A stretch of 34,194 nt of DNA from a virus. Lineage: Duplodnaviria > Heunggongvirae > Uroviricota > Caudoviricetes. Below, piece after piece: positions 1 through 12,228 of this stretch. A program made the translations under genes and the position numbers. Position 1 is the first letter of the stretch; the number at the start of each line of letters is the position of its first letter. A model generated the notes under the pieces. The model did not search any database. It was not told where the DNA came from and saw only the letters and a list, made by a program, of their open reading frames with translations. The stretch is taken from positions 1 to 34,194 of IMG/VR virus record IMGVR_UViG_2778261184_000007; one strand, given 5' to 3'.

Positions 1-50
1 TCTTCAGATATGTTATGAACGCACAGAAAGAGCATTAAGTTACATTGATG

Positions 51-1427
51 TTACCCAACAGAGGTTGACTCAAACATAGAAAAAATTAACCCTTTACCTT
101 CGCCAAACTCAGTCTCAATTTCATCAGAAACGGCAGATAAAATGCTACGCAGATCGACATCTCCGCCGCCGAACATATCGCCTAACGCTTGTTGTTGGTG
201 AATAAGTTCATCGTTAATTTTTTGCGCCAGTTTCTTGAAAGCGGCCCCCATTCGCTTAGCGCTTCGGTTGTTGGCAACAATAAACAGAGCAAGCGCTTCT
301 GCTTCCGGAGTGCTATCTCCAAACAATCCACGCTGTGCGATCACCTCTTCTACTGCCTGACCGTTATCTTTTGCTTCACGAACAAGGTTAATTGCTTCCT
401 GGAGTGCTGCTATCGCCTGTGTATCCAGGCCATTAACCTGCTCTATACCGTCCACTAAGCCTGTTACTGCGTCATGGTGAGCGTCGCCAGACAGCGACTG
501 CATTTGCGCAAAATCGCTGGCTGCCGTATTTAATGCGGTCAGGATATTACGCATTTCCGGATCTGGCTCTTCCGACACTAGCCGAACAAGCCTTTCATCC
601 TTGTACGCTTTGGCAAAAATTGCATTCTGGATGCGATCGATAAGCTGTTTCGTGGGACGCCCATCGGCAGTAAGCAAGCCTGCCGTCGCTGTATCGCCAA
701 TTTCGCGCAAAAACGCACGAATAAACGCATCATTGGACCGCGCCAGCAGATTTCCATCATCTGAAGGATTAAATAGCGCCATGACGCTCTCAGTGAGAAA
801 TTGCGCATCCGCATACGCTTTTTCACTTGCTGCCATCTCTTGCAGATCGCTAATGTTTGAATCGCGGGCAAATTGAGCGCGGTCTACATCTGTGAGTCTT
901 TCTCGCACTAGTACGGGCATAGACATTTGCGAAATTTCGTCAGGATTCAGACCAAACTCTTTCGCATGGTCGATCAGGTACTGGCGATACTCATCCGCCT
1001 GTCCTTGCTCATAGGCACGCCAGATACCCATACTCCTTCCGTTGCCGGATTCAACAACGTTGTCCGGACCAACTATCGGCGCTCCGTGGCTGCTCATACC
1101 GGAATCCGTTAATTGTGCCGGGCGTAAATTGGAGGCAATACGGTTAACCTGGAGTTTGCTGGATAGCCGGGTACGATCTCGTGGTTGGAGTTCTTCCGGG
1201 AAGGCCGGGTTAATCATACCGTCAAGGTTGTTCGAAATGATCAGACTGCTGGCATCAACGACCTTAAAAGCCGTCTTTACCTCTGCACCTTTGCTGGTGA
1301 CTACGTAGCTACTTCGCCCCAGGCGTGTTTCTTTCCTCTCTAATGAAGAAACCAGAGCAATGACGCTGTTAATATCTGCGGCCTCGGAAAGCGCAGAAGT
1401 AACTGATTTGTTCAAAATACACTCCAA
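51..1427 (-). CDS. 458-aa protein, distal gene of the dar-type (capsid-associated antirestriction) gene string; function not assignable
   Basis: Complete ORF with stop at 51-53; same strand and immediately downstream of the darA-like/ddrA-like genes; no recognisable catalytic motif. Preceded by a hairpin at 1485-1507. Confidence 0.5.
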   Translation of the reverse strand: MECILNKSVTSALSEAADINSVIALVSSLERKETRLGRSSYVVTSKGAEVKTAFKVVDASSLIISNNLDGMINPAFPEELQPRDRTRLSSKLQVNRIASNLRPAQLTDSGMSSHGAPIVGPDNVVESGNGRSMGIWRAYEQGQADEYRQYLIDHAKEFGLNPDEISQMSMPVLVRERLTDVDRAQFARDSNISDLQEMAASEKAYADAQFLTESVMALFNPSDDGNLLARSNDAFIRAFLREIGDTATAGLLTADGRPTKQLIDRIQNAIFAKAYKDERLVRLVSEEPDPEMRNILTALNTAASDFAQMQSLSGDAHHDAVTGLVDGIEQVNGLDTQAIAALQEAINLVREAKDNGQAVEEVIAQRGLFGDSTPEAEALALFIVANNRSAKRMGAAFKKLAQKINDELIHQQQALGDMFGGGDVDLRSILSAVSDEIETEFGEGKGLIFSMFESTSVG

Positions 1428-1484
1428 CTATAGAGAAAGCTGTGAGTGTAAAAAGAGTGTGATTTATGTGAGAACAGAGAAGTG

Positions 1485-1507
1485 AAAGGGGCATTTCGCC
1501 CCCTTTT
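1485..1507 (-). terminator. GC-rich hairpin (GGGGC-loop-GCCCC) between the ddrA-like stop and the next gene; candidate attenuator or bidirectional terminator
   Basis: Inverted repeat AAAGGGGC/GCCCCCTTT with 5-nt loop; T-run on the + strand side, U/C-rich on the - strand side. Confidence 0.35.
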
Positions 1508-1509
1508 GA

Positions 1510-1878
1510 TTACCCGGCATAACCGTTGGCTTTCACCCAGCTTATGGTCTGTTCTTTAGCCTGCTCCAACGTAAGGAACTCGCCAACATAGTTTGAGATC
1601 CCACGCAGCGCATCAATAAATTCCATTTGTGTGGACTTTGTGAACACACCGCCCAGGAAGTCAGTCACTATCTTAGGGACTTCATCTACAACAGGATCAG
1701 TCTGTTGTTGCGGTTCCGCTGCCGGTTGCGCGGCAGTCCCCAGGCCCAATTTCAGCATCACATCAACAATCTGCTTACCAATGGTGACGCGTTGCAATAC
1801 TGGCGCAGTTTTCTGCGCCTGCATTAGATCTGATAGCTCTTTACCTAATTTCAGGCGGTCTAAAACAGAGATGGTCAT
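1510..1878 (-). CDS. 122-aa small protein following darA-like gene (DdrA-position)
   Basis: ATG start overlaps the upstream gene stop by 1 nt (TAATG), implying translational coupling within the operon. Confidence 0.5.
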   Translation of the reverse strand: MTISVLDRLKLGKELSDLMQAQKTAPVLQRVTIGKQIVDVMLKLGLGTAAQPAAEPQQQTDPVVDEVPKIVTDFLGGVFTKSTQMEFIDALRGISNYVGEFLTLEQAKEQTISWVKANGYAG

Positions 1879-3803
1879 TAAGCACCTCCCTGCTGAATTT
1901 CAGCCAGAATGTTGATCAGGTAGTCAACTGCTGCACCCACAGTGGCTTCGTTCTCGTCGTATCGACCTGCACTGATTAGAGCATTTGCTGCTTCCTGTAC
2001 ATGATCAAGTTCAGTACTGATGACCGTCAGATCGCGGGATGTAAACTGCTCCGGAACGGATTTCAGGTACTCCAGCGCTTTATCTGCCTCCTGATCAGCT
2101 TCACTTGCTGATTCACCAGCTTCTTCTGGCTCCGGCTCCTGTTCTGTTGCTGGTTGTGGTTGTGATTCCGGCTCAACCACATGCTCTGTTTTTACTTCGA
2201 TTGAATGATTTTGAAGGGCGTTATACACGTCCATAATGAAAAGGTTCTCCCCATCACCAAGTGGATACGCCACGTTTGGAAACGCTTTGCGGAAAAGAAT
2301 TTTCACTTGCGCCTTGAATGTTTTCAGGTCACTGCCAAACAGGTCTACATAGCCATCAATATGTTTCGACATGCTGGACACAACCAATTGGCCTGCAAAA
2401 TCTTTCAGCTCATCTTCATCAGGAAGATAGAGCAACTCGTACTGGCTGACTTCTTCATCTGTCAGTTTACGGTCATACGTAATGATACCGTGACGAGCAT
2501 ATTCGTAATACTGATCAGCCTGGTCAGGACGATCAATCACGGCTTTATTTCCATCCGGCACAGCACCAACACCAGCCGGGCGAGATTGAAGTGCATAGTG
2601 GTATTTACCTACATCCTGGCTCTCTTGTTGTGATACTGGGTTCGTCTCGGGGTCTGTCTGTGGTGGTTCGGAGTCTTCCTGCTGGCCTGGTAACACATCA
2701 ACTTTATATTTATCTGCGTTATGCTCTCGGTAGGCTTTAAGTAATTTGGTTGCAGCATCTGCCAAACTGCCTCCTTTGACAGCACTGGCATCAATACTGA
2801 ATTTACCTTCAGGTGCTACTATCGTAACGAAATTGTCACTGCCGGACGTGACATAATTAACTTCAGCGCCATTATCCAGCACTGTTTTTCCGTCAATGGC
2901 AAGATTATGTTTTACATGTCGCAGCTGGTCACTAAACGCTCGCTCTTTCGTTTTTTCACCTTTAGCAGACAACAATTTATCGCGTTTTGCTTGTAATTCC
3001 TCGTTGATGGCTTTCTGGGCATCAAGTTTTTTTTGCATCTCCGTAAGAGCAGCACGCTTTTCAGTCAGCCCACGTTGCGCAACGTCCACCTGATCAATCA
3101 TTATTGACCGTTCTTCTGCCAGTTTATCTGCTTCATTGAGATAACTCTCAATATCTGCCTTCATTTTGTCCTGGCGCTCTTTTGCTTTCTTAAATTTTTC
3201 GCTGTTACGCTCAATCAAATTAGATAGCGCCTGGCATACCTGGCTTAAAGAAACATCTCTCCCACCAATCGGGGCGACAACGTGAGTTACGTTACGCTTA
3301 TTAAGTAAAAACTGAAATGCAACAAGCTCGTCGTTACTCTTTATTTTTGCCCCGTCAGCTGTTGGAGAGTGGAAAATTATGCTTGTACTCTGCCCGTCAG
3401 TAAGCGGTATCTGCGCGGTCAAAACAGGGATATTAGCTATCCGACGTACACGACCGATAATCGCACCACCAATACAATTACGTCCATTTTCATCGGTCCC
3501 AGCTTCATCAGTCCCTGCCATAATATTCGTACCATTCAGGCCACGATTCAGCGCACGGACGAAAGCTCGCATTGTTTGAGCTAACCGAATTCTGGTTGTA
3601 GTTATGGACTCAAACATAGCTTCGTCAGACACAACCAGAATTTCATTGCCCATATAGGCAAGCTCAATATCTTCTAAGGTCGCCGCCTCAAAAATCAGGT
3701 CATCTTCGTTTAATTCTTCTGAAGACCAGCGACTTGGCATATAGCCGGGGATCGTATCAGCAAAAGTAGACTGAATATTAATTCGTAAAGGATTGTTAAT
3801 CAT
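1878..3803 (-). CDS. darA: DarA-like capsid-internal antirestriction protein (about 641 aa from the ATG with best SD spacing)
   Basis: Large coiled-coil-rich protein in the position expected for darA in P1-family order (lydA-lydB-hdf-darA leftward from cin). Start chosen at the ATG 6 nt after GGAGG; the ORF track extends to 3842 on an alternative start. Assignment by synteny and size, not by alignment. Confidence 0.55.
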   Translation of the reverse strand: MINNPLRINIQSTFADTIPGYMPSRWSSEELNEDDLIFEAATLEDIELAYMGNEILVVSDEAMFESITTTRIRLAQTMRAFVRALNRGLNGTNIMAGTDEAGTDENGRNCIGGAIIGRVRRIANIPVLTAQIPLTDGQSTSIIFHSPTADGAKIKSNDELVAFQFLLNKRNVTHVVAPIGGRDVSLSQVCQALSNLIERNSEKFKKAKERQDKMKADIESYLNEADKLAEERSIMIDQVDVAQRGLTEKRAALTEMQKKLDAQKAINEELQAKRDKLLSAKGEKTKERAFSDQLRHVKHNLAIDGKTVLDNGAEVNYVTSGSDNFVTIVAPEGKFSIDASAVKGGSLADAATKLLKAYREHNADKYKVDVLPGQQEDSEPPQTDPETNPVSQQESQDVGKYHYALQSRPAGVGAVPDGNKAVIDRPDQADQYYEYARHGIITYDRKLTDEEVSQYELLYLPDEDELKDFAGQLVVSSMSKHIDGYVDLFGSDLKTFKAQVKILFRKAFPNVAYPLGDGENLFIMDVYNALQNHSIEVKTEHVVEPESQPQPATEQEPEPEEAGESASEADQEADKALEYLKSVPEQFTSRDLTVISTELDHVQEAANALISAGRYDENEATVGAAVDYLINILAEIQQGGA

Positions 3804-4416
3804 GCTCATCCTCCAGGCGCGCGATTTCTTCTTTAAGAGCACGTGTCTTAGCTACTTCCTGAGACAAGGCAGCTTTAACGTTACCCGTATCTTGCATTAC
3901 TTTGTCTGACTTGCTCTGGAGTTTAGACAGTTTGTCGTTAGCATTAGCGATATCTTCACGGAGTGCATCACGTGATTCTTTCGCTTCAGCTAATTTCTGA
4001 GCGTTAGATTTAACTCCCTGCCGCTTCTTATTTCCGTCATCAATATTTTTTGCTGCACGAGCAAGTTTTCGAGCTAATGACTTCTGGAAAGAAGTTGCTC
4101 CGCGATTAAATAAAGCCGCAAGAGATTGCCCCAAAGCCGACATTGTTTTTACTGGCTTGAACGGTACTGTTTTACCATTCAGTTTGATCCCAGATATATC
4201 ACCGGTATCGTTAACCTGAACTTCCATTGTCTGTTCATCAATACCAATAAGGGTAAACGTGCGCGTCATGATCCCATCTTTCTTCCTGCCATTACTGGCA
4301 GGGATCACCCTCGCTATCTTGTAACCACCTTTGCTGATTTCTTTGACGAGTTTTGCCAGCCCCTTTTCGTTTAACTCATCATAATTAAGAAGAACATAAT
4401 TATTCTTATTTGACAT
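3796..4416 (-). CDS. Hdf-position protein (about 206 aa) with C-terminal coiled coil, in dar-type operon
   Basis: ATG at 4416-4414 preceded by AAGGAG; the ORF track begins earlier on a GTG. Lies between the lydB-like and darA-like genes. Confidence 0.5.
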   Translation of the reverse strand: MSNKNNYVLLNYDELNEKGLAKLVKEISKGGYKIARVIPASNGRKKDGIMTRTFTLIGIDEQTMEVQVNDTGDISGIKLNGKTVPFKPVKTMSALGQSLAALFNRGATSFQKSLARKLARAAKNIDDGNKKRQGVKSNAQKLAEAKESRDALREDIANANDKLSKLQSKSDKVMQDTGNVKAALSQEVAKTRALKEEIARLEDEHD

Positions 4417-4852
4417 CCCAGTCTCCTTCACGCTTTCCGATCGTAAACTGGCGCTCTATGCAGTCATTGATAGGGAAAATGCGATAAAGCGGATTCAGTC
4501 GGCAGTTACCGTTAGTCAATGTGACTTTCAGATCCCACTTCGTTGGCTCAAGATATTTCGTATCGATGAGCAAATACTCTTCTCTCTCACCGCGTTTTGA
4601 GGCGTCAACTGGTCGCGTTTTCCCTGAAATAACCACAGATGGATTTTTCAGGTCTTGCAACCAATATTCGATTTGAGCATTGCTGACCCAGCTTCGCTTA
4701 ACACGTAGCGAAACAGGAAATGCTATAGCGGATTCTTTCACTACAGCGTCACCAATACTCAAAATCTCAACACTCTTGCGACGAAAAATGAAACGGTCAA
4801 TGATGGCAACAAATGCCATGATAAAAATGAAATAATTTCCAAAGTTACCCAT
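4406..4852 (-). CDS. lydB: LydB-like antiholin (148 aa)
   Basis: Follows and overlaps a 3-TM holin-like gene. Size and position match the P1 lydA-lydB pair next to cin as recalled. Confidence 0.5.
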   Translation of the reverse strand: MGNFGNYFIFIMAFVAIIDRFIFRRKSVEILSIGDAVVKESAIAFPVSLRVKRSWVSNAQIEYWLQDLKNPSVVISGKTRPVDASKRGEREEYLLIDTKYLEPTKWDLKVTLTNGNCRLNPLYRIFPINDCIERQFTIGKREGDWDVK

Positions 4853-5178
4853 TATTTCTCTCCACCTTTTCCCCCATTCGCTATTACGCTTAAGAGATTC
4901 AAGACGTTACTAGCTCTGGACTTCAAGCCCTGTAAAATTTCACTACCGTTGTTACTGGCAATCAGAACAACGCAGAAAATGATACCTTCAGGCCATTCTT
5001 GGCTAACCGCCACCCCATACCCCGCAAGCCCGGCTGTTACCGCAGTAAACAATTCACTCGCAAGATTGAGCAGGGACGCAGAAATGCGCCCATCTCTAAC
5101 TCCGAGAAGGAATACGCCGGTTCCACTTAGTAGGGATGTTATGACTACTACAGCCAGATTTTCATAATCTGCAAACAT
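4852..5178 (-). CDS. lydA: LydA-like holin (108 aa, three predicted transmembrane segments)
   Basis: Hydrophobic stretches LAVVVITSLLSGTGVFLLGV, LFTAVTAGLAGYGVAV and IIFCVVLIASN; charged C-terminus. First gene of the leftward operon. Confidence 0.55.
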   Translation of the reverse strand: MFADYENLAVVVITSLLSGTGVFLLGVRDGRISASLLNLASELFTAVTAGLAGYGVAVSQEWPEGIIFCVVLIASNNGSEILQGLKSRASNVLNLLSVIANGGKGGEK

Positions 5179-5281
5179 ACCCCTCCAGAAATAACATCTA
5201 ATGCGCCACTAACTTAGTCAGTTTGTTATTTCCTTACAGGACATCTTCTAGAATCGTATCCTTAGCATACAAGGGAGACAT

Positions 5282-5700
5282 ATGCTTATTGGATACATTC
5301 GCATATCAACAAATGACCAAAACACCGCTTTGCAACGCCCCCTTGAAAGCGCAGGATGTGAGCCAATTTTTGAGGGCAAAGCGAGTGGCAAAAAGGCTGA
5401 ACGCCAAGGGTTAAAAAAGGTTCTGCGTATGTTTTCCAGTGATGAAGCCTTGGTCGTATAGCAGTTAGAGCGGCTTGAGGGCAATTTAGTTGTGCTGCTG
5501 TAATCGCTGCGTGCCAGATGAATAAACCTTCTGAATCCCACTAATTCTATCGACATCTGTACACCAATGCAGCGCTCACGATGCAATTAAGATCAACATT
5601 ACAGGGATGGTTTTCATTAGTGGTCGGTCCGACACAAGATGCATCGAATTGATGCGCCGCGCGATAAGTGTATCTATCCCCTCGAGATAAACTACATCGA
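5282..5700 (+). pseudogene. Decayed serine DNA invertase (Hin/Gin/Cin/Pin family) remnant
   Basis: ATG at 5282 opens MLIGYIRISTNDQNTALQ...ALVV, then an in-frame TAG where the family has Trp (LVVW-KLDRLGRS here reads LVV*QLERLEGN). Further downstream TNSIDICTPMQR (cf. TDSIDTSTPMGR in the intact invertase) appears in a shifted frame. Below the 60-aa ORF-track cutoff. Confidence 0.7.
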
Positions 5701-5713
5701 CGCGGCATTTGTA

Positions 5714-6286
5714 TTACAACTCAGTTTGAGTTTGGCGCTTCTCTACAGGGTGATAACGATAAATCGTCGATACACCGATATCGTAAATAATTGCCAACTG
5801 TTTCCTGCTGTAGCCATTTTCGATCAACCTCGCTATTTGCTCATGTTGTTCTTTTGTCAACTTCGGGCGACGTCCGCCAATGCGTCCCTGTTCGCGTGCA
5901 GCTGCCAGTCCAGCCAGGGTTCTCTCAACAATTAATTCACGTTCCATTTCTGCTAAAGCCCCCATGACGTGAAAAAAGAAACGCCCCATGGGTGTTGAGG
6001 TGTCAATGCTGTCTGTCAGACTACGAAAATTAACACCTTTTTCCCGCAGCTCCTCAATAAGTGTGATCAGGTGTTTCATACTTCTGCCAAGCCTATCCAG
6101 CTTCCAGACAACCAGCGTATCTCCTTCTGATAACGTTCTGAGCAGCTTTTTCAAGCCTGGTCTGGCTGACTTTGTTCCGCTTATTTTATCTTCAAAAATC
6201 AGTTCACATCCTGCGCAGTTCAGTGCATTTCTTTGTAAATCTGTGTTTTGGTCATTTGTTGACACACGAATGTAGCCAATTTGCAT
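5714..6286 (-). CDS. cin: Cin/Min-type serine DNA invertase (190 aa from ATG)
   Basis: MQIGYIRVSTNDQNTDLQRNAL... with catalytic-serine motif, conserved LVVWKLDRLGRS and FFFHVMGALAEMERELI blocks, and C-terminal HTH; SD AAAGAGG upstream of ATG at 6286. The ORF track adds three codons from a TTG. Confidence 0.9.
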   Translation of the reverse strand: MQIGYIRVSTNDQNTDLQRNALNCAGCELIFEDKISGTKSARPGLKKLLRTLSEGDTLVVWKLDRLGRSMKHLITLIEELREKGVNFRSLTDSIDTSTPMGRFFFHVMGALAEMERELIVERTLAGLAAAREQGRIGGRRPKLTKEQHEQIARLIENGYSRKQLAIIYDIGVSTIYRYHPVEKRQTQTEL

Positions 6287-6340
6287 GAAAAACAACCTCT
6301 TTGTTTAGTTAAAAATACATCGTTGGTATAGGTAGGGATT

Positions 6341-6366
6341 AAGACTAAAACGTTGGTTTGGGGGAA
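6341..6366. other. Invertase crossover site 1 (cix/mix-like 26-bp imperfect palindrome), nearest the invertase gene
   Basis: Bottom strand reads TTCCCCCAAACC-AA-CGTTTTAGTCTT; the AAACC..GGTTT core resembles hix/gix/cix half-sites. Confidence 0.7.
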
Positions 6367-6864
6367 GGCTCTGCGCTGCCCGTTGGTGTGCCCGTTCCGT
6401 GGCCCTCAGCCACACCGCCAACGGGATGGCTGAAATGTAACGGAGCAGCATTTTCTGCTGAAGAATACCCAGAACTGGCAAAGGCTTATCCCACCAATAA
6501 ATTACCGGATTTACGCGGTGAGTTTATTCGCGGCTGGGATGACGGACGTGGTGTGGATGCGGGGAGAACAATATTATCCGCTCAAGGTGATGCCATACGT
6601 AATATCTATGGTGAGTTCAGAACTGTAAACACTGAAAATTATTCAATATGGGAATCAGTAGGCTCGTTTAAGGGGGCAGTGGTGCCTTTGAGTCCCTCAA
6701 CGAACAATAGTTATTTCTCCTTAATCAGAAGTATGGTGACAGAAAGAACAGACGGCACTGTTTACCCAAAAGTGATTGGCCTTGATGCTTCAAGAATTGT
6801 TCCAACTGCAAACGAAAACCGCCCACGCAACATTGCGTTTAATTACATCGTAAGAGCCGCATGA
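6358..6864 (+). CDS. Promoterless tail-fibre C-terminal tip cassette 1 (silent in this orientation)
   Basis: Frame opens at the TTG inside the crossover site (no ATG); conserved block GEGSALPVGVPVPWP...GWDDGRGVD, unique centre, conserved end RPRNIAFNYIVRAA. Confidence 0.75.
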   Translation: MGEGSALPVGVPVPWPSATPPTGWLKCNGAAFSAEEYPELAKAYPTNKLPDLRGEFIRGWDDGRGVDAGRTILSAQGDAIRNIYGEFRTVNTENYSIWESVGSFKGAVVPLSPSTNNSYFSLIRSMVTERTDGTVYPKVIGLDASRIVPTANENRPRNIAFNYIVRAA

Positions 6865-6883
6865 AAACGTTGGTTTGGGGGAA
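6858..6883. other. Invertase crossover site 2
   Basis: Same half-site TTCCCCCAAACC-AA-CGTTT on bottom strand, straddling the cassette 1 stop and the cassette 2 TTG. Confidence 0.7.
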
Positions 6884-7342
6884 GGCTCTGCACTGCCCGT
6901 TGGTGTGCCCGTTCCGTGGCCCTTAGAAATACCGCCAACGGGCTGGCTGAAATGTAACGGCGCAGCATTTTCTTCTGAAATGTACCCCAGGCTGGCAAAG
7001 GCTTATCCGACCAATAAATTACCGGATTTACGCGGTGAATTTATCCGTGGCTGGGATGACGGACGGGGCGTTGATAATGGACGCAACCTACTGTCTGCGC
7101 AGTCTGACGCTATTCAGAATATAGTTGGCACTTTTGGGCGTACTCAGCTTTTTAAAGATACGCTGAATTCAGGGCCATTTAGTCAAACTGACTCTATATT
7201 ATCAGTAGGCTTACAACCAACTGAGATCATTGAAGGATATGGTGCTTCTGTATGGACATTCGACGCCTCTCGCTCAGTTCGCACAGCGTCTGAAACACGC
7301 CCCCATAACATTGCGTTTAATTACATCGTAAGGGCGGCATAA
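6875..7342 (+). CDS. Promoterless tail-fibre C-terminal tip cassette 2
   Basis: Same conserved N- and C-terminal blocks with a distinct centre (…NGRNLLSAQSDAIQNIVGTFGRTQLFKDTLNSGPFSQTDSILSVGLQPTEIIEGYGASVWTFDASRSV…). Confidence 0.75.
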   Translation: MGEGSALPVGVPVPWPLEIPPTGWLKCNGAAFSSEMYPRLAKAYPTNKLPDLRGEFIRGWDDGRGVDNGRNLLSAQSDAIQNIVGTFGRTQLFKDTLNSGPFSQTDSILSVGLQPTEIIEGYGASVWTFDASRSVRTASETRPHNIAFNYIVRAA

Positions 7343-7361
7343 AAACGTTGGTTTGGGGGAA
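7336..7361. other. Invertase crossover site 3
   Basis: TTCCCCCAAACC-AA-CGTTTTTATGCC on bottom strand. Confidence 0.7.
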
Positions 7362-7814
7362 GGCTCTGCGCTGCCCGTTGGTGTGCCCGTTCCATGGCCC
7401 TCAGCCACACCGCCAACGGGATGGCTGAAATGTAACGGCGCAGCATTTTCTTCTGAAAAGTACCCAAATCTGGCAAAGGCTTACCCTACTAATAAATTGC
7501 CGGATTTACGCGGTGAATTTATTCGTGGCTGGGATGACGGACGTGGTGTGGATGCCGGGCGACAATTATTATCTTCACAGGGGGATGCAATAAGAAATAT
7601 TGAGGGGTTCGCAGATGGCGGGATTGGCATGTCTTTTGATGCAATCAGAGGGGCTTTTTATGATGCAGGAACACGATCTGCGAGAATGCCGAATAACACA
7701 ACTGATATAGGCAAAACCGATGACCTTGGATTCGACGCCTCTCGTGTCGTGCCAACAGCTAATGAAAACCGTCCTCGTAATATTGCCTTTAATTATATTG
7801 TGAGGGCGGCATAA
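7353..7814 (+). CDS. Promoterless tail-fibre C-terminal tip cassette 3
   Basis: Conserved ends, unique centre. Confidence 0.75.
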   Translation: MGEGSALPVGVPVPWPSATPPTGWLKCNGAAFSSEKYPNLAKAYPTNKLPDLRGEFIRGWDDGRGVDAGRQLLSSQGDAIRNIEGFADGGIGMSFDAIRGAFYDAGTRSARMPNNTTDIGKTDDLGFDASRVVPTANENRPRNIAFNYIVRAA

Positions 7815-7833
7815 AAACGTTGGTTTGGGAGAA
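7808..7833. other. Invertase crossover site 4
   Basis: Same motif with one substitution in the conserved half (GGGAGAAGG instead of GGGGGAAGG). Confidence 0.65.
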
Positions 7834-8301
7834 GGCTCGGCGCTGCCCGTTGGTGTGCCTGTTCCATGGCCCTCAGCCACGCCGCCAACGGGGTGGCTGA
7901 AATGTAACGGTGCAGCATTTTCTTCTGAAATGTACCCCAATCTGGCAAAGGCCTACCCCACCAATAAATTACCGGATTTACGCGGTGAATTTATCCGTGG
8001 CTGGGATGACGGACGAGGCGTTGATGCTGGACGTGCTTTATTGAGCATTCAGACTGGGATGCTGGAAAAACATCGCCATATTGTTGTTGCCAACGATGGG
8101 TATGATTCAAAAGAGGAATGGGAACTGGCGACAATCTTCAGAAGAGCATACACGCAAGGCCGGGGGCTTGATGCTGCTGATGTCGGAGGGACTCTGATTC
8201 CATCACCAACGCTTCATTCACGAGGAAGTATTGGTAACACAGGTGGTAGTGAAACCCGCCCCCGCAATATTGCATTTAACTATATCGTGAGGGCGGCTTA
8301 G
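7825..8301 (+). CDS. Promoterless tail-fibre C-terminal tip cassette 4
   Basis: Conserved ends, unique centre; converges on the chaperone gene with a 6-bp gap. Confidence 0.75.
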   Translation: MGEGSALPVGVPVPWPSATPPTGWLKCNGAAFSSEMYPNLAKAYPTNKLPDLRGEFIRGWDDGRGVDAGRALLSIQTGMLEKHRHIVVANDGYDSKEEWELATIFRRAYTQGRGLDAADVGGTLIPSPTLHSRGSIGNTGGSETRPRNIAFNYIVRAA

Positions 8302-8307
8302 TTATAT

Positions 8308-8919
8308 TCAACTGGCTGATGCCAGTGGTATTTCCGGCAAGTTGATATCTGGTGCCATGTTTATATCCATTGCGTTCAGCGCGTCTATATAATCCAGCAC
8401 GGCATTAAGCCGGGTGGTTTCTGCCTGCGTCAACTTCCGCCCGGCCCGCAACTTCAACTGAATCAGACTTATGGAATCCATTGCCGCATCAGCCAGTGAC
8501 TGGCGCTTGGTTTCTGCCGCTTCTACTGCGGCACGATGTTGTGCCTCAGTATCTGTCACCCATTTTTCACCATCCCATTTATCGTATGGTGTTAACGGGG
8601 CGATAGTGGTTGTATTTTTCGGGTAGTCACCCAGCGCCGTGATTTCTTCGGTGTTTCCCGTGTCAGTGCTATAGACGGTTTCACCACGATGGTCTGGCGC
8701 ATACTCCCATGAATTTAAATCCTCCGAACGGCGAATAGCATAGCCAGATTTATGTGCGCCTGGGGCATCTAAACAGGAATTAGCCGGAATACCAACACCC
8801 ACAGCAAGATATTCAGTTGACTCTGAAATATATTCCCGTGTCTCACCATCATAGTTATAAACGATGATGTTTCCTGCCTGTACGGCAATAAGATCATTAT
8901 TTAATATCGCGTTATTCAT
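8308..8919 (-). CDS. Tail-fibre assembly chaperone (Tfa/U-like, 203 aa)
   Basis: N-terminal region typical of Mu/P1 U and lambda Tfa-type proteins (…YDGETREYISESTEYLAVGVGIPANS…); ATG overlaps the stop of the preceding cassette by 1 nt. Confidence 0.65.
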   Translation of the reverse strand: MNNAILNNDLIAVQAGNIIVYNYDGETREYISESTEYLAVGVGIPANSCLDAPGAHKSGYAIRRSEDLNSWEYAPDHRGETVYSTDTGNTEEITALGDYPKNTTTIAPLTPYDKWDGEKWVTDTEAQHRAAVEAAETKRQSLADAAMDSISLIQLKLRAGRKLTQAETTRLNAVLDYIDALNAMDINMAPDINLPEIPLASAS

Positions 8920-9377
8920 TATGCGGCTCTCACAATATAATTGAAGGCAATATTGCGTGGACGGGTTTCATTCCCCCCTGAGGATTCCGTTCTGTATTGA
9001 CTGGAAAATTTACCATTAATCGCCCCTCCCTGGACGGCGTTATCTGTCGACAACAGACTATCCCCCCCTCTGTCATTTGGCACCAATACCGTGTTATCCC
9101 ACGCGTCCCATGACCGAATATTATGATAATGACTTCCAGTTAACCACCCCTGTATGCTTAAGATGCCCCTTCCCGCATCCACCCCGCGCCCATCATCCCA
9201 ACCGCGAATAAATTCTCCCCGTAAATCCGGTAATTTATTAGTGGGGTAAACCTTTGCCAGATTTGGGTACTTTTCAGAAGAAAATGCTGCTCCGTTACAT
9301 TTTAGCCAGCCCGTTGGTGGTGTTTCTAAGGGCCACGGAACGGGCACGCCAACGGGCAATGCTGAGCCTTCCCCCAA
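8919..9377 (-). CDS. Promoterless tail-fibre C-terminal tip cassette 5 (minus orientation, between the expressed tip and the chaperone)
   Basis: Begins at the TTG within crossover site 5; conserved N block, unique centre (…WLTGSHYHNIRSWDAWDNTVLVPNDRGGDS…), conserved RPRNIAFNYIVRAA end. Confidence 0.75.
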   Translation of the reverse strand: MGEGSALPVGVPVPWPLETPPTGWLKCNGAAFSSEKYPNLAKVYPTNKLPDLRGEFIRGWDDGRGVDAGRGILSIQGWLTGSHYHNIRSWDAWDNTVLVPNDRGGDSLLSTDNAVQGGAINGKFSSQYRTESSGGNETRPRNIAFNYIVRAA

Positions 9378-9394
9378 ACCAACGTTTCTATGCC
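9369..9394. other. Invertase crossover site 5 (inverted relative to sites 1-4)
   Basis: Top strand TTCCCCCAAACC-AA-CGTTTCTATGCC. Confidence 0.7.
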
Positions 9395-11694
9395 GCTCTT
9401 ACGATGTAATTAAATGCAATATTACGCGGACGAGCTGATACATAAGCCCACCAGTCATATTTTTGGGCACCTTTACTGGATGCATCAAATATCCACTTTT
9501 TGCCATTTATGGCCCCCCATTGATTAGAGGTTAAAGTGTCACCAAATCCGTATTGTGGTGAGCTGAGTGAACTGATATCCCCAGTATCATTATCATCAAA
9601 ACCGGAGACGATAGTGCCTTCCTGAAATGAAAGTATCTCTCGTCCTGCATCAATACCTCGTCCGTCATCCCAGCCACGGATAAATTCGCCCCGTAAATCC
9701 GGTAATTTATTGGTCGGATAAGCCTTTGCCAGTCTGGGGTACATTTCAGAAGAAAATGCTGCTCCGTTACATTTCAGCCATCCCGTTGGCGGTGTGGCTG
9801 AGGGCCATGGAACGGGCACACCAACGGGCAGCGCAGAGCCTTCCCCCAAACCAAGGTAATCAAGAACGCCCTGAGTGCTGGTTTTACCAAGAATGGCACG
9901 CCCAACACTTGTCAACGCGGTTAACGCGGCACGATCTTCCCCTGTAAAATATGGGAGTTTATCTGCTGATGTAGCAAGCTCTGCCAGCGCCGTCAGGGTG
10001 GCATCCTTCGGTTGCTTACCCGCAAGCGCGTTAGTCATGGTGGTCGCAAAATTCGGGTCGTTGCCCAGCGCCGCCGCTAACTCGTTCAGCGTATTCAGTG
10101 CGTCAGGCGACGAGTCTACAAGTGCGGCAATCGCGGCCATAACGAAAGCCGTGCTTGCGATCTGGGTATTATTAGTCCCCTGTGGCGCTGTTGGTGTTGT
10201 TGGCGTTCCGGTCAGTGCCGGGCTGTTTAATGGTGCTTTCTTGTTCGTTTCATCCATTACCGCCTTAACAGCTTTTGGTGTCGCTGCCAGCGTTTCAGAC
10301 GTGCTGTTCGTGGCGCTACTAAGCTGAACTATCCCTTTTTGTGCCGTCGTAGCGTCCTGTGCTGTGTATTTGCCATTAGCAAGATCATACGCTGCCTTAA
10401 CTGCCTTAGGCGTTGCTGCAAGAGTTTCAGACGAGCTGTTGATGGCACTACTAAGTTGTACAATGCCGCTCTGAGTGAGGCTGGCTGCTGGTACGTCGGT
10501 AATCTGGCTCCAAGGGTGGTTATGGCTGGCGTTGGCACACTCTGCAAAGCGAGCACTTAACCAGGAACTCAACCAACCGTCTCCCCACTGACTGCCATAC
10601 ACATCACCACCGGTGCTATAACGTGCATCCCCTATCAGAAGCTCTTTTAATGAGGTAATACTTCTTTCCGTGAAAAGGAACACACGCTGGCCGTTGGCGA
10701 ACACGGACAATGCGCCGTCTCCTTCATGTTTAATTCCGGTATCGTCATCGCCCAGCGTCAGAGAGTTCCCCCCCAGTCTGTTGTTGGTATTGATGCCGAA
10801 TGCAGAGGTCTGCGGCAGATTAAGTTTACCTGTCATAGTGTCGCCATCTTTGGCAACTTTTTCTCCAATCAGGCGAGTCACTGTCGCGGAAAAGTTCGGA
10901 TCATTACCAAGCGCGGCGGCCAGTTCGTTCAGAGTGTTAAGTGCGTCAGGCGATGAGTCTACAAGTTCAGCAATCGCAGCCATAACGAAAGCTGTGCTTG
11001 CGATCTGAGTGTTATTCGTTCCCTTAGTCGCCGTTGGTGCTGTTGGCGTCCCTGTCAGATTCGGGCTGTTGATCGGGGCTTTTGTATCAACCAAATCATG
11101 GAGAGTTTTGACAGCCAGAGGTGTAGCCGCTTTTCTTTCTTCTGTACTGCTTATTTCATTAGAGAATTCGACACCAACAGCACGGTTAACCCGGTATTTA
11201 AGCACAATCATTTCTTTAGTCACAGCCGTTGCGCCGCTAGGCACGATAACTCGACATAATTCAATTTGATTCTGCCCAATAGTATTGTCCGTACGCGCGT
11301 AAATTCTTGCAGCACTGACAGAAGATGCGCTATCTACCTGTGTCGTTTTTACACCATGTTCAAAATTGGCTTCCAGCACAATAATGTTGGTAGCCCCTGC
11401 CTTTACCGAGACAGTCACATCTTCTATTTGCTGAACGGATATCTGAACATTATTTACATCTACTGAAGCAGCCCCTTTACCTTCTGAGTTTTCAGAAGTT
11501 ATACGGACACTCAACCCTGTGCCGGGAACCGGTTCAAATCCACAGTAAAAGCCAGGCAAAACAATATTTTTAAGTTTTCTGTTAAGAGCCGAACTACTAT
11601 AGAGTTCGAAATATTGAACATCAGCAAGCAACGGCTGTGAGACACCAGAGGATAGTGTCATTATGTTGTTCGTTTTATCAGCACCCATAATCAA
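9388..11694 (-). CDS. Tail fibre protein (S-like, 768 aa): constant N-terminal part fused to the currently expressed variable tip
   Basis: Repeated fibre motifs (GIVQLSS..NS.SETLAATPKAVKA three times; NTLNELAAALGNDPNF twice); C-terminal 150 aa carry the same conserved blocks as the cassettes; ATGA overlap with the upstream R-like gene. Confidence 0.85.
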   Translation of the reverse strand: MIMGADKTNNIMTLSSGVSQPLLADVQYFELYSSSALNRKLKNIVLPGFYCGFEPVPGTGLSVRITSENSEGKGAASVDVNNVQISVQQIEDVTVSVKAGATNIIVLEANFEHGVKTTQVDSASSVSAARIYARTDNTIGQNQIELCRVIVPSGATAVTKEMIVLKYRVNRAVGVEFSNEISSTEERKAATPLAVKTLHDLVDTKAPINSPNLTGTPTAPTATKGTNNTQIASTAFVMAAIAELVDSSPDALNTLNELAAALGNDPNFSATVTRLIGEKVAKDGDTMTGKLNLPQTSAFGINTNNRLGGNSLTLGDDDTGIKHEGDGALSVFANGQRVFLFTERSITSLKELLIGDARYSTGGDVYGSQWGDGWLSSWLSARFAECANASHNHPWSQITDVPAASLTQSGIVQLSSAINSSSETLAATPKAVKAAYDLANGKYTAQDATTAQKGIVQLSSATNSTSETLAATPKAVKAVMDETNKKAPLNSPALTGTPTTPTAPQGTNNTQIASTAFVMAAIAALVDSSPDALNTLNELAAALGNDPNFATTMTNALAGKQPKDATLTALAELATSADKLPYFTGEDRAALTALTSVGRAILGKTSTQGVLDYLGLGEGSALPVGVPVPWPSATPPTGWLKCNGAAFSSEMYPRLAKAYPTNKLPDLRGEFIRGWDDGRGIDAGREILSFQEGTIVSGFDDNDTGDISSLSSPQYGFGDTLTSNQWGAINGKKWIFDASSKGAQKYDWWAYVSARPRNIAFNYIVRAA
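9841..9866. other. Invertase crossover site 6, inside the expressed tail-fibre gene at the constant/variable junction
   Basis: Top strand TTCCCCCAAACC-AA-GGTAATCAAGAA: conserved half-site intact, other half diverged because it is constrained by coding sequence (…DYLGLGEGS…). Confidence 0.65.
10050..10225. repeat. Intragenic direct repeat copy A within the tail-fibre gene (about 175 bp)
   Basis: Roughly 85% identical to 10890-11065 by eye; encodes the duplicated …NTQIASTAFVMAAIA.LVDSSPDALNTLNELAAALGNDPNF… block. Confidence 0.7.
10890..11065. repeat. Intragenic direct repeat copy B within the tail-fibre gene
   Basis: Partner of the 10050-10225 copy. Confidence 0.7.
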
Positions 11695-12137: not shown

Positions 12138-12202
12138 ACGAACATAGCCCCTTCATAAGCAATGAACCAATGGAGAGTATGCTCAGTTTGTGATTTCCGT
12201 TG

Positions 12203-12228
12203 TTCTTCCCCCGCATTTGGGGGAAGAA
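12203..12228. other. Perfect 10-bp-stem hairpin between the gp16-like and R-like genes
   Basis: TTCTTCCCCC-GCATTT-GGGGGAAGAA; no convincing U-tract on the minus transcript, so more likely an RNA processing/stability element than a strong terminator. Confidence 0.35.

Follow-up and report, generated by a model that had tools for sequence, protein, structure and literature searches.

The minus strand of positions 51–5178 of the DNA analysed here very probably carries the P1-type lyd-dar (darA) late operon of a D6-like phage-plasmid related to P1. The window, by which we mean the whole 34,194-nt stretch of viral DNA that was analysed (IMG/VR record IMGVR_UViG_2778261184_000007), had originally been predicted to contain a P1 dar-type operon led by a holin and an antiholin, and this is borne out: each of the six proteins encoded in the region aligns with the P1 protein that holds the equal operon position. 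The operon is an ordinary one and is not new; all six genes have already been annotated as P1 homologues by the authors of phage D6. Its significance lies in little beyond correct annotation, namely that a widespread D6-like phage-plasmid carries the complete lysis and antirestriction operon of the P1 type.

Gene content and a candidate late promoter

Six co-directional ORFs, all on the minus strand, fill positions 51–5178 in the order lydA, lydB, hdf, darA, ddrA and ddrB. They were expected to overlap in part, and the first five do so successively by 1 nt (lydA/lydB, where the lydB ATG and the lydA stop codon share that nucleotide), 11 nt (lydB/hdf), 8 nt (hdf/darA) and 1 nt (darA/ddrA), while ddrA and ddrB are separated by a 94-nt gap that contains a hairpin. 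A Shine-Dalgarno sequence lies ahead of each ORF. Identity to the P1 counterparts by BLAST is 33–64% for the six proteins (33–43% for five of them), matches above the curated Pfam cut-offs were found for LydB, DarA_N, DarA_C and ddrB-ParB, and PHROG matches cover all five named components. The dN/dS values, 0.05–0.2 over all six genes, indicate purifying selection and, together with the strong homologues, argue that the ORFs are real genes and not chance occurrences. An invertase gene and tail-fibre cassettes adjoin the operon, beginning at approximately position 5280. A search of positions 1–6400 for RNA families found no known family at E≤1. The genes darB, ulx, lpa and pro are located outside the window, and homologues of all four are encoded by D6; from such close relatives we infer that they are present on the source element. 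A D6-type DarB with at least 80% identity is found in approximately 115 plasmids, including NZ_CP122910.1 and NZ_CP074704.1, both of which carry the operon.

The first gene, lydA (5178..4852), encodes a 108-aa holin homologue that shows 43% identity to P1 LydA (E=2e-23, BLAST) and matches PHROG 1527 (holin) with E=8e-39; its score against the Pfam family Phage_holin_3_3 was 18 bits, under the cut-off of 28.4. The three transmembrane segments originally predicted for this protein are plausible, as hydrophobic segments are found at residues 7–28, 43–59 and 65–82, the third being marginal. The second gene, lydB (4852..4406), encodes a 148-aa protein with a hydrophobic anchor at its N-terminus that shows 34% identity to P1 LydB and matches the Pfam family LydB (PF16084; E=1.5e-24, 86.9 bits) and PHROG 1898 (E=1e-68), pointing to a LydA antagonist, or antiholin. 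The two predicted products fit a LydA/LydB pair, in which a small multi-TM holin homologue is followed by a LydB-family antagonist. By analogy with P1, LydA would make the membrane lesion that releases the endolysin and LydB would delay it.

Again by analogy with P1, transcription of the operon would take place in the late phase of lytic growth and would probably start at a promoter that lies just ahead of lydA and is activated by Lpa. A comparison with LPdar, LPlyz and LPs, which are annotated late promoters of P1, gave one LPdar-like candidate, AAGTTAGTG-GCGCA-TTAGAT, at 5215..5196 on the minus strand, the -10 element of which ends 18 nt ahead of the lydA ATG. P1 LPdar (AAGTTACTT-TGCA-TACCAT) has the same placement relative to lydA; the candidate agrees with it at seven of the nine positions of the -22 box and has a spacer 1 nt longer, and it is identical in D6. 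The P1-type -22/-10 box has this one match in the window, where approximately one is expected by chance, and we retain the site tentatively as a position-based candidate, for its placement alone. The region that precedes the R tail-fibre operon of the window showed no P1-type box; this and the chance-level frequency of the motif suggest that the late-promoter signal of D6 may differ from that of P1. A lineage-specific box common to the upstream regions of lydA and R, ACAAACTGA, was considered and rejected, since it shows no enrichment (42 matches versus 37 ± 6 expected).

The hairpin behind ddrA

The gene ddrA (1878..1510) encodes a 122-aa protein with 33% identity to P1 DdrA (E=3e-22) and a match to PHROG 1855, DdrA-like anti-restriction (E=5e-50); a Pfam search with this protein returned no family. 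Right behind its stop codon, at 1485..1507 on the minus strand, the predicted hairpin is indeed found, with an 8-bp stem, a 5-nt loop and a centroid energy of -12.9 kcal/mol. A pattern scan flagged a terminator-like site at the hairpin on the plus strand only, and a clean U-tract is missing behind it on the transcribed strand. The core of the hairpin, GGGGC/GCCCC, is kept in all seven relatives compared, despite differing or unrelated downstream DNA, which supports the original prediction that it sets the last gene apart, in the sense of a conserved structural and mosaic boundary. The DNA just past ddrA appears to be a mosaic hot spot, and the variants that follow ddrA in D6-like plasmids are a short DdrB, a long DdrB with an hxr-like gene, a TnpB insertion, and no ddrB. 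The hairpin is probably a leaky intrinsic terminator or an RNA-stabilising stem, and it probably lowers read-through into ddrB, a gene whose TTG start is itself weak. The possibility that the spacer holds a separate sigma-70 promoter that drives ddrB was rejected: the elements TTTACA and TATAGT are just 14 nt apart and show no conservation in relatives, and the resulting transcript would be without a ribosome-binding site.

That homology among relatives breaks just past the hairpin, that a TnpB-type element adjoins it in p1_000200, and that TnpB genes lie near it in an E. marmotae plasmid could also mean that the hairpin is a feature of the DNA and not an expression signal; it would then be a hot spot for recombination or insertion, or a remnant of the end of a mobile element. 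Because the stem is invariant there is no covariation evidence, and covariation thus lends RNA pairing no support. We consider this explanation unlikely, however, as the hairpin lies directly 3' of the stop codon that closes a translationally coupled gene block, and in the E. marmotae plasmid the operon ends at the hairpin and a T-run then follows, which is the classic position of a terminator. The DNA-level and terminator roles of the hairpin are in any case compatible.

A tentative further proposal is that the hairpin is a functional joint between a fixed core, lydAB-hdf-darA-ddrA, and an exchangeable slot for distal cargo. If so, D6-like phage-plasmids could vary the accessory protein that is loaded into the head, and a short DdrB lacking the peptidase would mean that packaging can proceed without self-processing.

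DarA, Hdf and the short DdrB

The gene hdf (4416..3796) encodes a 206-aa protein with a DarA_N-type domain (E=8e-18, 64.8 bits) and a charged C-terminal helix. It matches PHROG 1620, Hdf-like antirestriction (E=1e-76), and by BLAST it is 40% identical to P1 Hdf; a global alignment gives an identity of 38% for the N-domain and of 23% for the helix region. The next gene, darA (3803..1878), encodes a 641-aa protein, predicted to be capsid-internal, that had been proposed to resemble DarA. The resemblance proved strong: the alignment to P1 DarA is collinear and full-length, with 38.5% identity across 620 aa (E=1e-140), the match to the solved P1 DarA chain (PDB 9ukm_I) has E=8.6e-123, and both DarA_N (PF18788; E=1e-39, 135.6 bits) and DarA_C (PF18789; E=1e-18, 68 bits) score above the Pfam cut-off of 27 bits that applies to each. 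The protein is accordingly assigned by its sequence to the P1 DarA family, and darA is paired with its upstream paralogue hdf (DarA_N plus a C-terminal helix), as in the DarA family of P1. The later proteins of the operon had further been described as large coiled-coil proteins, which holds only in part: Hdf and DarA each have a helical charged segment, DdrA is not a known coiled-coil protein, and DdrB is ParB-like.

Conservation is uneven along DarA, with 58% identity to P1 in the capsid (hexon)-binding domain, the best-conserved part, 22% in the helix, 33% in the penton-binding domain and 41% in the C-terminal region, while the N-terminal 69 residues or so are poorly conserved (23%). The helical capsid-contact segments of Hdf and DarA are weakly conserved relative to P1 (22–23%), an observation that counts against a P1-like reading.

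The mechanism that we propose follows that of P1 (PMC12810830, PMC12707154; virion proteome table, PMC9024508; domain analysis, PMC5512222). DarA would be packaged in the head, with its N-terminus processed by the protease Pro, and would be ejected together with the DNA; DarB and Ulx would come from elsewhere on the element. The Dar proteins would contact the packaged DNA and accompany it out of the head when a cell is infected, and would shield it in cis against restriction by type I systems. By this analogy we infer antirestriction activity in the D6-like lineage. As a pair, DarA and Hdf additionally serve P1 as a factor in scaffolding and head size: deletion of darA or hdf drops the proportion of normal-size heads from approximately 80% to approximately 15%, and the pair remains bound at penton-hexon junctions (PMC12810830). 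It could be argued on these grounds, and from the high conservation of the hexon-binding domain of DarA, that Hdf and DarA here are mainly a capsid scaffold or head-size determinant with little or no antirestriction activity, the label "dar" being inherited from P1; our search of the literature found no restriction assays on D6-like phages. This is quite improbable, as DdrA, DdrB, DarB and Ulx, the complete set of cargo proteins without a known structural role, are all retained in the lineage, and the cargo genes are all under purifying selection. Since both roles coexist in P1, the choice between scaffold and antirestriction is a matter of emphasis, and the two are not exclusive.

The distal protein, which the original prediction gave as 458 aa and left unnamed, is a short form of DdrB. 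The longest ORF (458 aa) begins at 1427, and the gene as we define it (1415..51) starts with TTG and encodes 454 aa. The Pfam domain ddrB-ParB (PF18763) is matched at residues 46–177 of the longest ORF with E=1.9e-42 and 144.7 bits (cut-off 27.6), the protein shows 64% identity to residues 2–446 of the 995 of P1 DdrB, and it matches positions 10–445 of the 995 of the PHROG 2299 profile. It consists of a DdrB-type ParB/Srx-like domain with approximately 280 further amino acids and ends at residue 454, without the predicted zincin-like peptidase half. To the C-terminal half of P1 DdrB (residues ~447–995) no match was found in D6, and no solved structure related to DdrB was found. By its domain content, therefore, the 454-aa protein is a "solo" DdrB that comprises the N-terminal module only. 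Iyer et al. assigned the C-terminal half of P1 DdrB to a zincin-like peptidase and predicted that it is the ParB fragment at the N-terminus that P1 packages (PMC5512222). As it has no C-terminal peptidase half, the short DdrB would presumably be packaged without self-processing. It is very improbable that the gene is a truncated, non-functional remnant severed from the operon by a terminator, since, although it corresponds to no more than the N-terminal ~450 residues of the long forms (995 aa in P1, 1013 aa in pB2C_96), sits behind the hairpin with a TTG start codon and is absent altogether after ddrA in one relative, its dN/dS of 0.05–0.06 versus three relatives (one at a dS of 1.4) indicates strong purifying selection, the ORF is intact with a Shine-Dalgarno sequence in every copy examined, the short DdrB of independent plasmids stops at one common boundary (453, 454 or 461 aa), and the N-terminal fragment is the very part that is predicted to be packaged in P1. 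In this lineage the short DdrB is the form commonly found, and it offers a natural test of whether the peptidase half is needed for packaging or for loading of DarB.

Comparison with phages P1 and D6

The darA operon of P1 (NC_005856, 24542–31230), LPdar-lydA-lydB-hdf-darA-ddrA-ddrB, has the same gene order and orientation as the operon in the window and likewise adjoins an invertase and an invertible tail-fibre segment. In both, the genes are translationally coupled, DarA_N is common to Hdf and DarA, and DarA_C is present. The two differ in the length of DdrB (995 aa in P1 versus 454 aa in the window) and in the ddrA-ddrB gap, which is 12 nt without a hairpin in P1 and 94 nt with a hairpin in the window. 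In addition, the P1 operon is flanked by lydC upstream and by hxr downstream, neither of which was seen in the window.

Plasmid relatives of the operon are numerous. It was found on 120 plasmid records, with a coverage of 80% or more in 115 of them and an identity of 95–99% in most. The D6-like plasmid prophages, which have been described previously (PMC6799933), have E. coli, Salmonella and Shigella as hosts, an example being the ~89-kb Salmonella plasmid NZ_CP011430.1.

Escherichia phage D6 (MF356679 / NC_050154) shows 96.5% nucleotide identity over positions 1–5576 of the window, and its record annotates orf25–orf30 as similar to P1 ddrB, ddrA, darA, hdf, lydB and lydA. D6 shares the six genes, their order and overlaps, the 94-nt spacer with its hairpin and the short DdrB, and its proteins are 93–100% identical to those of the window. 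Identity is 100% for LydA (orf30), 93% for DdrA, which has a 2-aa indel, and 95% for DarA, where there is a 4-aa indel and the substitutions cluster in an acidic Pro/Glu-rich linker. One base of the hairpin stem is changed in D6, giving a U-G pair versus the C-G pair of the window. Past position 5576, in the invertase and tail-fibre region, D6 differs from the window.

Gene content and homology of the operon

The interval 51-5178 is filled by six minus-strand open reading frames in the ORF listing of the window. With gene starts adjusted by ribosome-binding sites and by the annotation of Escherichia phage D6 (MF356679 / NC_050154), the closest phage, these are lydA (5178..4852, 108 aa), lydB (4852..4406, 148 aa), hdf (4416..3796, 206 aa), darA (3803..1878, 641 aa), ddrA (1878..1510, 122 aa) and ddrB (1415..51, 454 aa, TTG start). 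The original prediction of six co-directional, partly overlapping genes was right in count, sizes, strand and overlaps; the 458 aa it gave for the last gene holds for the longest ORF, which becomes 454 aa from the refined start. Because lydA, lydB, hdf, darA and ddrA overlap successively by 1, 11, 8 and 1 nt, translational coupling of these first five genes is indicated by the layout, and a 94-nt spacer separates ddrA from ddrB.

When each protein was compared by BLASTP with the phage P1 (NC_005856) protein at the matching operon position, all six matched their counterpart, at 33-64% identity: LydA 43% (E=2e-23), LydB 34% (E=4e-29), Hdf 40% (E=5e-31), DarA 38.5% over 620 aa (E=1e-140), DdrA 33% (E=3e-22) and DdrB 64% (E=0). 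Pfam matches over curated cut-offs were obtained for LydB, DarA_N (in both Hdf and DarA), DarA_C and ddrB-ParB, while the LydA holin family match fell under its cut-off (18 vs 28.4 bits). The PHROGs labels were holin, lysis determining protein, Hdf-like antirestriction, DarA family and DdrA-like antirestriction, and the solved P1 DarA chain 9ukm_I matched the window DarA at E=8.6e-123. Given these BLASTP, Pfam, PHROGs and 9ukm_I matches, the 641-aa protein is DarA-related, and the original reading as a P1 dar-type operon is supported, the feature being real. A three-way DarA alignment is collinear from end to end. Identity to P1 is highest in the hexon-binding N-domain (58%), followed by the C-terminal region (41%) and the penton-binding domain (33%); it is 22% in the helical domain and 23% across the N-terminal ~69 residues, those removed in P1.

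Short DdrB and the hairpin that precedes it

The distal protein, which had been left unassigned, is by homology a short-form DdrB. Its alignment is confined to residues 2-446 of the 995 in P1 DdrB, and it covers positions 10-445 of the 995-position PHROG profile; no solved structures related to it by sequence were found. The C-terminal half of P1 DdrB is a zincin-like peptidase according to Iyer et al., thought to be self-processing (PMC5512222), and a search for this half in D6 gave zero matches. Short and long DdrB coexist among D6-like plasmids. The short forms (453, 454 and 461 aa) end within a few codons of a common boundary and share 96-98% identity with residues 1-450 of the 1013-aa long form in pB2C_96. 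Short ddrB has a dN/dS of 0.05-0.06 and is therefore a maintained gene, not a decaying remnant.

A hairpin at 1485-1507 (AAAAGGGGGCGAAATGCCCCTTT on the transcribed strand; stem 8 bp, loop 5 nt, centroid energy -12.9 kcal/mol) begins 2 nt past the ddrA stop codon. Its GGGGC/GCCCC core is kept in all seven relatives aligned, among them plasmid p1_000200, despite a TnpB element between ddrA and ddrB, and an E. marmotae plasmid in which no ddrB follows ddrA and a T-run follows the stem. Since the core persists in all of these, the hairpin is, on sequence evidence, a conserved boundary. It is probably either an intrinsic terminator of the leaky kind or a 3' stem that stabilises the RNA, and would lower ddrB expression relative to the core genes. 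The U-tract is interrupted on the transcribed strand, and covariation is absent because the stem is invariant. No Rfam family matched the hairpin region (window 1-6400, E<=1), and a search for a credible separate ddrB promoter found none. P1 lacks an equivalent hairpin, as its ddrA-ddrB gap is only 12 nt.

In E. coli p1_000200 (NZ_CP022228.3), the gene inserted between ddrA and ddrB encodes a TnpB-family RNA-guided endonuclease (2209-3417 of the retrieved stretch), and homology to the window ends ~8 nt past the hairpin. In the E. marmotae plasmid (NZ_CP056699.1; 107-3495 of its stretch), the slot after the hairpin holds unrelated cargo, as ddrB is replaced, on the opposite strand, by genes for a DUF3944 protein, an HTH regulator, a HicA toxin with its partner and TnpB. 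In E. coli pMUB-MIN14-1 (NZ_CP069647.1), the expected hdf and darA site (3930-6497 of its stretch) is occupied in the annotation by an 855-aa 'head protein', adjoining an ORF of just 107 aa at the lydB position; the 855-aa protein may represent a fusion of hdf with darA, or else result from a frameshift or an annotation artefact.

Candidate late promoter and a probable invertible region upstream

The sequence AAGTTAGTG-GCGCA-TTAGAT (5215..5196, minus strand), whose -10 element ends 18 nt 5' of the lydA ATG, resembles P1 LPdar, LPlyz and LPs; D6 has it unchanged. Its motif does not exceed chance frequency, and we regard it as a candidate Lpa-type late promoter only. No P1-type box was seen upstream of the R homologue in this window. 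A GC-rich hairpin, TTCTTCCCCCAAATGCGGGGGAAGAA, separates the homologues of gene 16 and R at 12195-12225 (minus strand). In P1 a similar hairpin occupies the corresponding position, immediately before LPs, and no P1-type -22 box was seen after the one in the window.

Homology to D6 stops near 5576. At 5282..5461 the plus strand encodes a remnant of a cin-like invertase, its N-terminal 59 aa; a complete invertase of the Hin/Cin family comes next (5714..6295, minus strand), in a region 95% identical to 'Hin1/Hin2' of phage vB_EcoM-673R5. Four tandem cassettes of ~470-520 bp (6263-8301) carry ORFs of 168, 155, 153 and 158 aa, the first two of which, the two translations examined, begin MGEGSALPVGVPVPWP. 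The cassettes are inverted copies of the minus-strand tail-fibre gene segments 9150-9432 and 9621-9857, and the region (within 5248-9900) has the appearance of an invertible host-range switch with multiple cassettes, whereas P1 and D6 have a two-state C-segment.

Expected mechanism and relation to D6 and P1

In P1, 55 DarA-Hdf pairs sit at penton-hexon junctions on the inner capsid surface, touch the DNA and are missing from emptied heads; without DarA or Hdf, heads shift to the small form and all other Dar proteins are excluded, DdrA, DdrB, DarB and Ulx being loaded in that order after DarA-Hdf (PMC12810830). All six Dar proteins are present in the P1 virion proteome (PMC9024508), and Dar targets type I systems and BREX, protecting packaged DNA only, in cis (PMC12707154). 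Homologues of darB, ulx, lpa and pro are encoded by D6 outside the window region, and D6-type DarB occurs on plasmids that also bear the operon; together with the P1 data, this leads us to expect a P1-like Dar mechanism in the operon's lineage. Short DdrB would, unlike that of P1, be loaded into the head without peptidase-dependent processing.

The wider window is matched by 389 plasmid records and the operon was found in 120, with at least 80% of it covered in 115 of these. The carriers, from E. coli, Salmonella and Shigella, are nearly all non-mobilizable and ~90 kb, and are D6-like plasmid prophages already described (e.g. PMC6799933). D6 is 96.5% identical to window 1-5576. DdrA is the furthest of the six proteins from D6 (93% identity), and the differences in DarA cluster in an acidic Pro/Glu-rich linker with a 4-aa indel (residues ~535-575, window 2080-2200), outside which it is near-identical to D6 DarA. 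The gene order is identical in P1 (LPdar-lydA-lydB-hdf-darA-ddrA-ddrB), where the operon adjoins cin and the invertible C-segment, and the six genes in both D6 records are labelled similar to P1 ddrB, ddrA, darA, hdf, lydB and lydA. The operon was thus known beforehand and has its annotation in a near-identical phage; the modestly new points are just two, that a conserved hairpin marks a mosaic boundary and that DdrB occurs in both a short and a long form.
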